A program made the position numbers and the translations under genes. Positions 25,601 to 64,000 of a stretch of DNA of 64,000 bases are shown here, one piece after another (position 1 is the stretch's first letter; every line of letters begins with the position of its first letter). Location of the stretch: positions 64,001 through 128,000 of the IMG/VR virus record IMGVR_UViG_3300028888_000053. One strand, given 5' to 3'. This DNA comes from a virus. Lineage: Duplodnaviria; Caudoviricetes. Under the pieces are notes generated by a model. That model saw only the letters and a list, made by a program, of their open reading frames with translations, searched no databases and was not told the DNA's origin.

Positions 25601-28600
25601 TTTAGATAAGAACCATTCTCTATGATACTTTCTATTTCCTTGATATTTTGCCAAATTATTTACATCGTAATTAACGACATTAGTACTTGTATTAAGCACA
25701 GTAGGATACATATATTTAACTTCTGCATCGATATTATCTGCAGCATCAGGCATTTTACTGTTTAAATATCCAGCAATAACATTATCGGTTAATACTGTGC
25801 GTAATTTCTAATATGTTACTTCTACTAATTTACCAAGGCCTAATACATACTAATTACTAGTAGTATTATGTATATATGCATCATAGCAATATTCGATATT
25901 ACCCCAAATTGCATGATACGAAACATTATTCGAATCTATACCATTGTATACTCCACTTGTTTCATCAGCATCCCAAGGAAGCTCTAATAAACCAGTGTTA
26001 GCTATACCAAGAATTGTGTCATTGTCATAGAAAATATAGAAAGCTCGCATGTGACCCATTGGATAATTACCATTAGATCCGTCGTTATCAGAAACTTTAG
26101 GATCGCAATAAAATCCTAACATACAATTTTTAATACGCTGATCTGCATTAACGAACATTTTTGTTAAGACATAATATTTTAAGATATAATTTACATTAAA
26201 ATATAAATGTAAATCCCTAGCAAAAATAGCCGCATGACTTTCTTTTTGACTCTATGGCCATAAATATACATTATTTTTATATAACCATTTATATAAACTA
26301 TTTAATAAATATGGCGTCGTTCCATTCTAATAAGCTATATATCCAGCATCATCACTATCAAAATCAGGATATCTTGGTTCCCAAGCCTATTCTTGACAGA
26401 ACCAAGCTAAAGGCTAACCGACATCTGTGGTTTTTTCAGTAAATGGATTTAAATTACGATAAGTTGCATTCTCAGAATCTGGCATTTCTCTTCCAAATGA
26501 AGAATCGCCTTCTTTCATATAAGGAAAAGTAAATGCTCCAATATTACAACGTATTGATCCCAGTAAATTTAAATGCTCTATATTTGTTGGTTTATTTGTA
26601 GAGAATTCCCAACATTCTGTAGGATTAACATATGTATTATTAGAACTAGACGTAAATGTCGAATGCGTGTCATCAAATGAACTATCAGTAATACCAAATA
26701 ATTCTTTCAAATGATCAGCTTCATTTTGAACAATTTCATTATCAAAATAACTTGGTTCATTTCCTGATGTATTAGTAAAACCAAATACATCTTCTGAAGC
26801 TTTTTCATTATTTAAATTATATTTTCCAGCATATACTATATTACCAAGTGTGCCATCTTCATTCCTGCCCTAGAAAAATAAATAAATCTATCTACCATCA
26901 ATGCTCTAACGTACTTCATATGGAAATTCTGCCGCTTCATCAACATCATTCATTGGCAAATGAACGCATTCCTAATTATACAAAATATCGCCTTTATTGA
27001 TAATTGAGTCAGAAGATTCTAATGCATACTAAGTCATTCTTGCAAAACCCGTATTGTGCATACCTGAAGATTCTGCATAATCTGCTTTCAAACAGAATAT
27101 ATTGGCAGGCATGGAATTATAAGAACTTTCTTGCAATCCCGTCTCATCAATTCTATTTGTGTTAAATAGAGAATATTGTGCAGGGTTTGAATCAGTAACA
27201 TTATTAATAAATTCACTAGGATTAAAATTAATTCCTGTAACATTAGAACCAGTAACAAACGTCTTAGTATAAGAAATTGTATTGCCTTTTGGATTTGTTT
27301 TATCCCATCCAGTATTAAATGGTGCAATATCCGTAAGCTTTTTTCGGAAATAAATTCTAAAGTTTTTAATAGGATAATTCATTGAAGAAGTACCCTATCC
27401 AGAAAGAGCTATTCTATCAGCATAAAAATTACCAGCATAAGCAGTCTAATTAGAATTCATTTTTTTAATTAAGAATGTTTCTCCTGCTAATAATCGCCAG
27501 CTCTTTGTTTCATTACCGCTATTATCTCGAGCCAGTAATTCATTGATAGTTTTCCATGGTTCTCTCACTCCATTTTCATGAGCACGAATTAACATATAAA
27601 CAGAGCCAACAGGCAATGTATCTATAGTTACTTTTTGTCCATTACCAACATGGTTGGTATTTAGTGAAATGGCACTTGAGAAAATATTATTCTAAGTACT
27701 ATATTCACCAATATTGGTATTATTATGAATATTATATAAAGCCTAAACTTCACTGAAAGTTATTGCTTTATTATAATATTGTATACCATATAAATATAAC
27801 GAAGTGTTATTTGCGGTAATAATTACATTATTATCATTAGCGGTACTAGTCCCGCTGCCTAAAATCATCTAAGAAGTACCATTAACATAAATAATTGCTA
27901 CATTACCATAATTACTACCATACCATACAAATGTAACTTCTTTTATAGAATTTTCACTAGAAAACTATGTTGTTACACTTTGTGTTCCTTGATAAATCGT
28001 TGCACTTTGTGAAGTTATTTTAAATCCATCACAATTATTCTTGATACAAGAAATTAAAGTTTCATTTGTATTTTCATTCACAGTTGAAAATCTAAATGAT
28101 ATAGCTTTTGGCGTTGTGATATTTAATGGTTGAATATTGGCATTAATTAATGCTCCATTATTAATAATTATGGCTTTTCCATCATTAGACCATCCATTTG
28201 AAGACCAATCAAAACCAGTAAACTAGAAAGAATATCCATCGATATTCATTTCATCAACAGCGGAACTCTATCCGTTTGGTATAAAATCAATAACTGGATT
28301 TGATGGTACAATTAAATCGTTAGCTAATTCAATCGTATCAACTAATAATGTAAAGTAATAATTACCAACCGAAACCGTTATAGTATTTAAATCAGATTGC
28401 AACAACTAATGAGACCAAGATAAATTCTATAAAGAATCGCTTTTGCCAGAAATATTAATTGTATTTATTTCTTTTTCATTTACTTTATAAACAACCTATC
28501 TATCAGTTGGGATGTATGCATATAAATTTAAATTAATAGTATCATATTGTGTGGCAACTATTCTATTTTCAGCCTAATTAACATTAGGCATGCCAATAAT

Positions 28601-29551
28601 TTTAAATGCAAATTGAGGATTTGAGCCAGAAGGATTAGAAATTAACTAAAATAAAACAACATCAGATTCAATTGTTGTGTCTCCTAGCGTAATTGCACTC
28701 TATATATAAAACGGATATTCGTTTCTGGTTGCAGTAGAACCAACTATATTACTTAACGTAAGATTATTTAAAGATGTTCCAGTAAATGAATTCACTGTAC
28801 TATTCAATCCAGAATATATTGTTGTTGTAATATCATTTGCGCGAATACCATACGTGGCTGATGTTATATTTTTTCCTAAAGAATCTGTTAATTCTAAATT
28901 TAATCCAAAAATAGAACTTGTACTCTATACAATTGTTGATATATCGTTAATATTTGTTAATTCTGCATTTAATTTAAGTTTAAATGACAATATATCTTGC
29001 GTTGGTAATACACCATCACTTTGTGCAAAAGTAGCAGCGCCATCACTATCAGTATACGACATATCAATTCTGATAGTATTTTTACCTTCTATAATATAAT
29101 CACCAGAAATTACATATGTTCCATATCTATCACTATTTGAATATGTAGCAGGAGCATTAAAAGTTGCAATCAATCCATTATTAACATATAGATTAACTTT
29201 TGCTTGTTTGTTATTAATTCTAGAGTTGTCGGCAGTAATATTATATGAATATCTAACTGTTACATCTGTTCCAGGAAAAGCATAAGAAGGAACCACAAAA
29301 CTTGTTAAATTTATAAACTTTTCAGATTTTGGTGTAAGTTTGATATCATAAGGAGTTTTTGTCCCGTCTACCTTTGTTACTTCGACAGAAAATTCATCTG
29401 TATTTTCTTCGTGTGTAAACACAATATCCTAAACAGTTTTATTGACGGTAGTAACGATGTCATTAAATTGTGATTTTATTGCGTTCTAAACTTGTTGTCC
29501 AGTAAATGGTACTGAACCCCAATCTGTATTAATATCATTACGTAATTCCAT
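22643..29551 (-). CDS. Giant (~2300 aa) tail/surface protein: LamG-like + CotH-kinase-like + leucine-rich repeats (BspA type at C-terminus)
   Basis: Seven ORF-track fragments lie in one frame; the junctions I read contain only TAG. Motifs: GTSSMNYPIKNFRI, LKADYAESSGMHN, SIDG, YAGKYNLNNEK, NADQRIKN, FYDNDTILG; C-terminal IGDGSF/IGTSAF/IGANAF repeats. Confidence 0.75.
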
Positions 29552-46814: not shown

Positions 46815-46890
46815 TTGGGGTAGTGGGAGTCGAACCCACTTTAACACGGGGTTAGAGCCCGCTGCATGAGAACCGTAATGCTGCACCCCA
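46815..46890 (-). tRNA. Amber suppressor tRNA (anticodon CUA), tRNA-Gln-like
   Basis: Acceptor TGGGGTG/TACCCCA; D-arm GCAT/ATGC; anticodon arm GCGGG-CTCTAAC-CCCGT (CTA at 46855-46853); T-arm GTGGG-TTCGACT-CCCAC; no encoded CCA. Confidence 0.92.
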
Positions 46891-62926: not shown

Positions 62927-63240
62927 AACTTCAGCTAAAATACAAGGATTACGGTACCTCAGAAATGGGGTATCCGTACCTTGAAGACGAAGTTTGGTGG
63001 GAGAAGGAAGTATCCTGCCAAGCGGAACTTGAGGTCGCCAAACAGGAACTCTACGCGTATGTACGTAAGGAGTTCTCCATTGACTGGTTGGTTGACTCTC
63101 TAGAAGAGAAATCAGAGAAGTCATACACTCTCAATCACCTTCGTTGTGAAGTGGTGAATTTTGGGAGTGTGATTGATTGTTGGGAACTTCGAAAGAGTGA
63201 ATTCATCTTCAACCAAGACGTGGTTGAAGTGTTAGAATAA
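62923..63240 (+). CDS. Early hypothetical acidic protein
   Basis: 105-aa ORF. Confidence 0.65.
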   Translation: MKLQLKYKDYGTSEMGYPYLEDEVWWEKEVSCQAELEVAKQELYAYVRKEFSIDWLVDSLEEKSEKSYTLNHLRCEVVNFGSVIDCWELRKSEFIFNQDVVEVLE

Positions 63241-63289
63241 GATGGTTTGTTGTTCTAGGATTGTCAGTACGTGATGTATAGACAATCCA

Positions 63290-64000
63290 CCCTATGGCCT
63301 CATGTGTAAGCGTTTCCGTCGCGAGGCTATAAGTAGGTTACATACCGAAACTAATTACACATATCAAATCCAATGTGGGTAACCCATTGGCGGCAGGCTT
63401 CTTGTCGTAGGATAAACTCGTGAGAGTATAAAGTATACCCCTTAAGAAAGGGTGTGCGTTGGAGTAATCCAATCCGAAAGAAAGCAATGATAATCAAGTG
63501 GTATCTGTAGTATCCTCGGGCAGAGGAGAACGGGTATTACGGAGGCTCTAACCAAGCTTCCTTGGGTGGTAACACCGACAATGATTAGCATTAAGTAACT
63601 CCTGAAGATTGCCAGTCTTAAAGAGTTACTAATCTGTACTGAAAGACCTATGGACAGCCAATGTCCGGTTGTGTGTGGCAACGCATCTCAGAAATGATAG
63701 GTTAGTAGTAAGTATAGAAGTAAGTAGTCGTGGCAGACGAAAGCAGAAAGGCGTTGGGATATACGTTGGTCAAAAGCCAGTAAGTTCACAAGCAGGACTA
63801 CGTCTTTCGGGTTGGTTCTTTTATTATTAGTAATAATTATTAATTTTAAAAGTACAAAAGCAAAAATGTTCTGCACTCGGGACTAACAATCCAGTTGTTC
63901 TTCTGTAATACGAAGACTATCAAAAGTACCGCAAGGAAATTGGTAGAAATGAAACGAGTAATCAATTGGTAAGAGGAGGCATCCTCTGTATCCGCAAGAG
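63290..64000 (+). ncRNA. Large structured non-coding RNA candidate (ROOL/GOLLD-like class), probably truncated at the window end
   Basis: No plus-strand ORF of 60 aa or more; at least 7 GNRA-capped hairpins and longer G.U-containing helices. Confidence 0.6.

Follow-up and report, generated by a model that had tools for sequence, protein, structure and literature searches.

The window analysed here, a stretch of 64,000 nucleotides comprising bases 64001-128000 of a 212,277-bp virus record, ends in a gene-free region rich in hairpins, and the question is what this region encodes. An earlier note, made from the sequence alone, had proposed a large ornate non-coding RNA on the plus strand, with GOLLD and ROOL among the candidate classes. 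An RNA of this kind is borne out by an Rfam match to GOLLD and by covariation in relatives. We conclude that it belongs to a known class, GOLLD, and represents a new divergent lineage missed by the standard Rfam cut-off. Between 63355 (possibly 63292) and 64000, the window very probably holds a single GOLLD-family RNA, with its 5′ domain, its linker and the beginning of its 3′ domain.

The gene-free stretch (63241-64000) comes directly after a 105-aa plus-strand ORF that ends at 63240. Its longest plus-strand ORF is 53 aa (with a TTG start), and a minus-strand ORF of 79 aa is the longest overall. No ORF of at least 80 aa occurs on either strand, even with TAG read as Gln. The region sits in a plus-strand block of small standard-code ORFs that adjoins TAG-recoded structural genes on the minus strand. 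Folding energies were compared with those of dinucleotide shuffles, a check proposed in the earlier note. For 63290-63830, the plus strand reaches -170.2 kcal/mol (z = -4.21), a stability that none of 100 shuffles attains, whereas the minus strand reaches -125.8 kcal/mol (z = -0.82), with 23 of 100 shuffles as stable. Because the plus strand folds far beyond its shuffles and the minus strand does not, the strand asymmetry previously deduced from G·U pairs is real, and covariation in relatives (see below) likewise places the structure at the RNA level on the plus strand. The seven tetraloop hairpins first picked out by eye are all in place (63370-63390, 63416-63427, 63459-63472, 63565-63576, 63673-63686, 63688-63697 and 63929-63936), as are the CAAAAG repeats (63771-63776, 63855-63860 and 63923-63928).

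GOLLD RNAs are among the largest non-coding RNAs of bacteria and phages. They were reportedly described by Weinberg et al. in 2009, and we know of no function established for them since then. The Rfam model for the family, RF02032, covers only the conserved 3′ half (the 3′ domain) and has a gathering score of 150 bits. At this threshold, an Rfam scan of the window and the extended locus returns no GOLLD, only a tRNA elsewhere. When hits are filtered by E-value instead, the final 255 bases of the window align with the 5′ part of RF02032 at 52.7 bits (E 1e-12), a match that is cut by the window end. The note had pointed to the following DNA for the 3′ end, and the next ~150 bases complete the match, which then covers the full model of 416 positions, lies at window-equivalent 63746-64149 (84.8 bits, E 3e-22; 1.3e-23 in a whole-genome search) and is the only one in the 212-kb genome. 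Of the two named candidates, GOLLD thus stands and ROOL does not; the ROOL model has no match on the window at E up to 10, nor on the extended locus at E up to 1. The note had also foreseen that an Rfam match would confirm the RNA while taking away most of its novelty, and this is how it turned out.

Since 84.8 bits is below 150, the RNA fails formal Rfam membership. We placed this score among those of other phages by scanning IMG/VR for three GOLLD core motifs (AAAGCAAAA, CGCAAG and CTCAGCC) at the right spacing. The motifs occur in this arrangement at 52 loci, against ~6 expected by chance (a rough estimate). A search of 49 motif-bearing records with RF02032 gave 35 full-model matches (E at most 1e-17) with scores from 64 to 324 bits and no gap, a continuum that includes the window RNA. 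Only 10 of the 49 records reach 150 bits and the other full-length matches score 64-123 bits, so the cut-off is conservative and marks no natural boundary, and standard Rfam annotation misses most of these phage GOLLDs. In a blastn search against GenBank phages, neither the window RNA nor the RNA of another motif-bearing locus (L017) has a match. The conserved loop and junction motifs of GOLLD (the UCAAAAG loop, AAAGCAAAAG and CGCAAG) are present and are kept in 18-21 of 21 relatives; conserved loops in the window RNA are UCAAAAG, AAAGCAAAA and CCGCAAGG. Nearly all RF02032 helices, including the long-range helix, are retained in the cmscan alignment of the 3′ domain. Homology to GOLLD is not in doubt despite the sub-cut-off score.

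GOLLD RNAs exceed 800 nt; their 3′ region is universally conserved, the 5′ region less so, and the linker is variable (PMC12286853). The RNA described here is ~770-860 nt long, lies on the plus strand and ends near 64152, just past the window; the remainder was read from the extended locus (L001 2261-2412). It follows the GOLLD plan, with a total of more than 750 nt, a variable 5′ domain of ~400 nt (63355-63745), a linker (63809-63856) and a 3′ domain of ~400 nt (63746 to ~64152). Because RF02032 models only the 3′ half, and in view of the published plan, we assign 63290-63745 to the 5′ domain. The parts within the window are listed below, where A1 and A2 are MAFFT alignments of 10 and 21 sequences, respectively.

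63292..63332, plus strand: leader hairpin of 9 bp (UAUGGCCUC...GAGGCUAUA), from the local fold, upstream of the conserved core
63355..63745, plus strand: GOLLD 5′ domain, from nhmmer homology to relatives and from RNAalifold and pair counts on A1 and A2
63413-63430, 63433-63457, 63458-63473, 63487-63495/63583-63591, 63498-63506/63532-63540 and 63513-63527, plus strand: covarying helices of the 5′ domain, part 1
63541-63561, 63562-63581, 63595-63629, 63645-63651/63697-63703 and 63727-63738, plus strand: covarying helices of the 5′ domain, part 2
63688-63697, plus strand: conserved GAAA hairpin in the 5′ domain
63746..63808, plus strand: first 3′-domain stem-loop (Rfam positions 1-64), from the cmscan alignment and A2 covariation
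63809..63856, plus strand: A/U-rich variable linker from the first 3′-domain stem to the 3′ core, aligned to the unpaired low-confidence linker of RF02032
63857..64000, plus strand: 3′-domain core up to the window end (Rfam ~117-261), from cmscan and covariation
63857-63865, plus strand: AAAGCAAAA in the 3′ core
63873-63884, plus strand: 5′ strand of the long-range helix
63899-63916, 63917-63946 (with CCGCAAGG at 63929-63936) and 63973-63986, plus strand: hairpins of the 3′ core

Sequence homology to relatives starts at ~63355-63392, and the conserved core begins at the GGCAGGCUUCUUGUC hairpin (63392-63406). The leader hairpin shows no sequence conservation among relatives and its own fold z-score is not significant; counterparts of unrelated sequence occupy the same relative place in four relatives (L015, L046, L065 and L060). 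The UCAAAAG loop of the first 3′-domain stem-loop (63770-63776) is the same in 18 of 21 sequences, and the linker differs among relatives in both length and sequence.

Three loci (L046, L015 and L023) align with the window RNA across both domains in nhmmer searches, with E-values down to 3e-70. With profiles, E-values for relatives reach 1e-180, and at least 27 relatives are homologous to the window RNA in both domains. Further relatives were collected by scanning IMG/VR twice more with subfamily motifs, and metagenomes and genomes once each, and a profile search yields 32 loci that cover the 5′ domain, 27 of them non-redundant. One relative lies on a contig binned into a Prevotellaceae MAG whose RUG-series name suggests to us a rumen origin. 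At ~17 further sub-cut-off GOLLD loci, equally far from the 3′ core, the opening 100-150 nt of the 5′ domain recur, with the GGCAGGCUUCUUGUC hairpin, AGAAUAA and the next hairpins. No nhmmer similarity was found between the 5′ domain and the upstream regions of ten above-cut-off GOLLD loci; the proposed equivalence of the 5′ domains rests on their position and on the known variability of this region. In IMG/VR, no relatives were detected of the flanking 124-aa and 105-aa proteins, through which syntenic loci were sought.

The subfamily HMM also matches Prevotella phage Lak-A1 (E 3e-34; L097 1259-1809, equal to MK250015.1 176491-177041 on the minus strand). This match includes CAGAAAUGG, UCAAAAGG, ACAAAAGCAAAAG, GUACCGCAAGGAAA and CUCAGCC. 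A further match lies in a 553,716-bp IMG/VR contig (L062 4732-5227). A cmscan of both loci against Rfam gives nothing at E up to 0.001.

Covariation in the collected homologues, which the earlier note had put forward as a check, is far above controls with slid partners. On A1, RNAalifold predicts 96 pairs, of which 61 have compensatory changes. In a ribosum-scored structure of 163 pairs, 88.4% of A1 is paired against 37-44% with slid partners, and 105 pairs are changed on both sides against 34-41. For A2 and a structure of 186 pairs, 92.3% of cells are paired (35-45% when slid), 137 pairs show double changes (64-72 when slid) and the covariation score is 0.514 against ~0.09, with none of 500 shuffles reaching any observed value; because the structure was derived from the same MAFFT alignments, all these counts lean slightly its way, by far less than they exceed the slid controls.

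Several of the individual helices proposed by eye are also borne out in the 21 relatives. The stems actc/gagt, ttgga/tccaa and ggtg/cacc and the agtaactc/gagttact helix are supported by covariation. The enclosing helix gtggtatctgt/acgggtattac is the best supported of all, and its core (gtggtatct/gggtattac) is 98.9% paired with double changes in eight of nine pairs. The tca-GAAA-tga stem covaries as well; the adjacent pair changes from C-G to U-A to G-C, and the GAAA loop is found in 20 of 21 sequences. Two proposed helices do not hold. The gtagtc/gactac helix crosses a well-supported stem (63746-63754/63800-63808) and its pairing is not kept in relatives, and the atgtgtaa/ttacacat helix falls in the non-conserved leader and is unsupported. 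Near the start of the conserved core, RNAalifold on A2 pairs GGCUUCUUGU (63396-63405) with GAAAGAAGCA (63476-63486) as an alternative to the local hairpin at 63392-63406, which in A1 has compensatory changes too.

In the 3′ domain, helices are 79-100% paired in relatives, with compensatory changes. The first stem-loop (helices 16-18 of A2) is 94%, 79% and 94% paired, with double changes in 17 of 21 pairs. The long-range helix, annotated as a pseudoknot in Rfam, joins 63873-63884 with 64026-64039 and is 89% paired, with double changes in five pairs. The loop of the hairpin at 63973-63986 reads GGCA in 13 and UCGC in two sequences (15 of 20 relatives).

At the 3′ end, the last stem extends past the end of the Rfam model, with AAAAGGU...GCCUUUU as its sequence in relatives and GUG(U)UGGU...GCCACAC in the window RNA, where it ends at ~64152. 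A scan for sigma-70 promoters and terminators around the RNA found nothing convincing, and the nearest good terminator comes after the downstream 124-aa gene. With neighbouring ORFs on either side in the same orientation and no obvious promoter or terminator of its own, the RNA is likely to be co-transcribed and then processed, and is probably cut out of a longer plus-strand transcript. An rRNA-type boxA leader (GTTCTTTGAAA) was considered and not adopted; its best match, ~200 nt upstream, has three mismatches, and the nearest thing in four relatives (L015, L046, L065 and L060) is a loosely similar hairpin with C(C/U)UUUAAAC after it.

Five nucleotides past the last GOLLD stem is a tRNA-like minihelix (L001 2417-2459, window-equivalent 64157-64199) with the sequence AGGCUU-CUCGUGAGGGAGUGA-UGGGUUCGAAUCCCA-C-AAGCCU. 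It combines a canonical T-arm (GGGUUCGAAUCCC) with an acceptor-like stem of 6 bp and a small GUGA hairpin, and has neither a D nor an anticodon arm. Neither ARAGORN nor the Rfam tRNA model calls it a tRNA, its fold is no better than shuffles, and it is absent from the relatives of the RNA. The idea that it is a copied 3′ end of a host or phage tRNA was rejected, given that the genome holds no second copy and that 185,579 species genomes hold no exact match. The position of the minihelix resembles that of the downstream tRNAs, tRNA-like elements or self-cleaving ribozymes that set the 3′ ends of other RNAs; unlike such tRNAs, it lacks the D and anticodon arms, is not called a tRNA and is unique to this phage, and so is only a candidate for this function. 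Because tRNAs or pistol ribozymes follow the last stem in other GOLLD loci, a processing role is plausible, and more speculatively the minihelix could be an RNase P site.

The 3′ flanks of the relatives are mutually unrelated and hold tRNAs, pistol ribozymes or terminators. At many GOLLD loci (L007, L019, L020, L025, L011, L013, L038 and others), the terminal CUCAGCC stem is followed by a tRNA at a distance of 6-20 nt, and at others a terminator-like hairpin comes first and the tRNA after it. A tRNA right after the GOLLD stem is consistent with co-transcription and release by RNase P. Five of 16 loci scanned have a same-strand pistol ribozyme (RF02679, 52-57 bits) that follows the GOLLD 3′ end at 6 to ~280 nt:

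L010 3451-3512, minus strand: pistol ribozyme (RF02679)
L048 2050-2111, plus strand: pistol ribozyme (RF02679)
L008 4605-4666, plus strand: pistol ribozyme (RF02679)
L043 1979-2040, minus strand: pistol ribozyme (RF02679)
L056 603-664, plus strand: pistol ribozyme (RF02679)

These ribozymes may define the GOLLD 3′ end. A literature search found no mention of GOLLD paired with pistol ribozymes.

The carrier is a 212-kb phage record with a crAss-like terminase and portal, and in its minus-strand structural genes TAG has to be read as Gln. The terminase shares 43-46% identity with those of human-faecal phages and ~28% with those of crAss-like phages of Bacteroides, Azobacteroides and Flavobacterium. 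As is typical of GOLLD, the RNA is phage-borne and near tRNAs; a tRNA cluster starts 3.65 kb downstream, and the genome has eight tRNAs above cut-off. Two further observations concern tRNAs. Within the window, Rfam reports a tRNA on the minus strand at 46815-46890 (38.7 bits), and ARAGORN finds none anywhere. An interrupted tRNA lies between a tRNA-Met and a tRNA-Pro, where the Rfam tRNA model stretches over 144 nt (L066 3873-4016, window-equivalent 67873-68016).

A homologous terminase (26-50% identity) occurs in all five phage records with close relatives of the RNA, three of which have in-frame TAG and one in-frame TGA. A crAss-like terminase is also found in 16 of 45 further GOLLD-motif records, and in none of the ten above-cut-off GOLLD records, five of which are complete genomes. 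No GOLLD was found in the three nearest terminase relatives (48-50% identity), and the RNA is therefore a dispensable, accessory element in this phage group. The lineage of the RNA is divergent and is carried by crAss-like phages of Bacteroidota from gut and rumen; several of them, the present phage among them, read a recoded stop as an amino acid in late genes. Among the terminase genes of GOLLD-bearing crAss-like relatives, there are 5-12 in-frame TAG codons in five records and ten in-frame TGA codons in one, and none in the others; both kinds of recoding thus occur among GOLLD carriers. The records with recoded terminases are as follows:

G054 (the record of L059), 26797-28884: recoded terminase
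G053: recoded terminase
G012: recoded terminase
G041: recoded terminase
G059: recoded terminase
G033: recoded terminase

The published GOLLD alignment contains Caulobacter, Vibrio, Roseobacter and Mycobacterium phages, and Bacteroides and Flavobacterium genomes only as partial matches. In a literature search, we found no mention of GOLLD together with crAss-like phages, crAssphage or Crassvirales.

On a different reading, the locus encodes an RNA class separate from GOLLD, with an ancestral 3′ module as the only part in common, its own 5′ domain, another or no oligomer, and perhaps another role in crAss-like and Lak-like phages. Its score is below the Rfam cut-off, but phage GOLLD scores run continuously from 64 to 324 bits with no gap at 84.8, and the RF02032 match takes in the whole model, long-range helix and conserved loops included. 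The 5′ domain has no sequence similarity to canonical GOLLD loci; however, poor conservation of the 5′ region belongs to the definition of GOLLD as published (PMC12286853), and the first 100-150 nt are shared with many sub-cut-off GOLLDs. Still in favour of a separate class, 5′-domain relatives in the tested phages occur only in records with a crAss-like terminase, which none of the ten above-cut-off records has, and Rfam misses the Lak-A1 relative altogether while the subfamily profile finds it. On balance, we regard a separate class as improbable.

Could the stretch instead be a long structured leader or an intergenic processing region of a plus-strand operon that, for example, regulates the downstream 124-aa gene? 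The GOLLD match itself argues against this, and so does the fact that relatives keep the RNA, whereas the flanking proteins have no detectable relatives in IMG/VR and the 3′ flanks of relatives are unrelated to one another. With same-strand small ORFs on both sides and no promoter or terminator found around the RNA as the points on its side, an operon leader seems highly improbable. A self-splicing intron or other known large ribozyme, or chance hairpins in A/T-rich spacer DNA, would explain the size and the GNRA loops and nothing further. The models for group I and II introns, RNase P, tmRNA, ROOL and OLE have no match even at E up to 10, the minus strand folds no better than shuffles, and the covariation in A2 rules out a chance origin of the hairpins; we consider the probability of any of these to be negligible.

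Taken as a GOLLD RNA, the molecule can be compared with the one member whose structure has been solved. GOLLD env-38, determined by cryo-EM (PDB 9MEE, Kretsch et al. 2025), forms an RNA-only cage of 14 copies in which the 5′ domains are the caps, the 3′ domains form the rings and the linker is disordered inside (PMC12286853). The likeness of the window RNA to GOLLD includes the two ~400-nt domains joined by an A/U-rich variable linker, the full-length match to the 3′-domain model with the long-range helix, UCAAAAG, AAAGCAAAAG and CGCAAG, and the location in a phage near a tRNA cluster. It differs in its score of 84.8 bits (below 150), in a 5′ domain that cannot be aligned by sequence to high-scoring GOLLDs and in its carrier, a crAss-like phage with TAG-recoded late genes. 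ROOL is likewise a large ornate RNA of phages and prophages that is found near tRNAs, and forms an octameric RNA-only cage (PMC12286853; PMC5737381), but its halves are intertwined, whereas the domains of the window RNA are separable as in GOLLD.

By analogy with env-38, a distant member, we hypothesize that the RNA probably self-assembles into a homo-oligomeric cage during infection, in which the 5′ domains would act as caps and the 3′ domains as a ring, with the linker inside. Potential cargo or targets could be tRNAs or ribosomes. In GOLLD, the L21a kissing contact is made by a self-complementary GC/CG dinucleotide (PMC12286853). The GGCA/UCGC loop of the hairpin at 63973-63986, which was mapped to L21a by position only, is compatible with self-kissing of this kind. 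The tRNA cluster 3.65 kb downstream and the ribosome pull-down reported for GOLLD (PMC12286853) would point to a role in translation.

In its widest form, the finding would describe a GOLLD lineage that had gone unrecognised, escapes Rfam annotation and is marked by a conserved 5′ domain of its own. It would be widespread among Bacteroidota phages of gut and rumen, including crAss-like phages with genomes of 100-245 kb and probably Lak megaphages, and many of these phages would recode TAG or TGA in late genes. A different cap could then build a cage of another geometry, and the position by a tRNA island could tie GOLLD to the takeover of translation. We hold this full picture only tentatively and think it unlikely to be right in every part.

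The crAss-like phages are the most abundant phage group of the human gut, and a divergent GOLLD branch common among them widens the known host range of the family. Only 10 of 35 full-length matches pass the Rfam cut-off, which hides most phage GOLLDs. For comparison with the solved cage, the alignment of the lineage provides 27 sequences with a well-supported 5′-domain structure. Knock-outs and pull-downs in Bacteroides would come within reach if such an RNA is carried by a cultured crAss-like phage.
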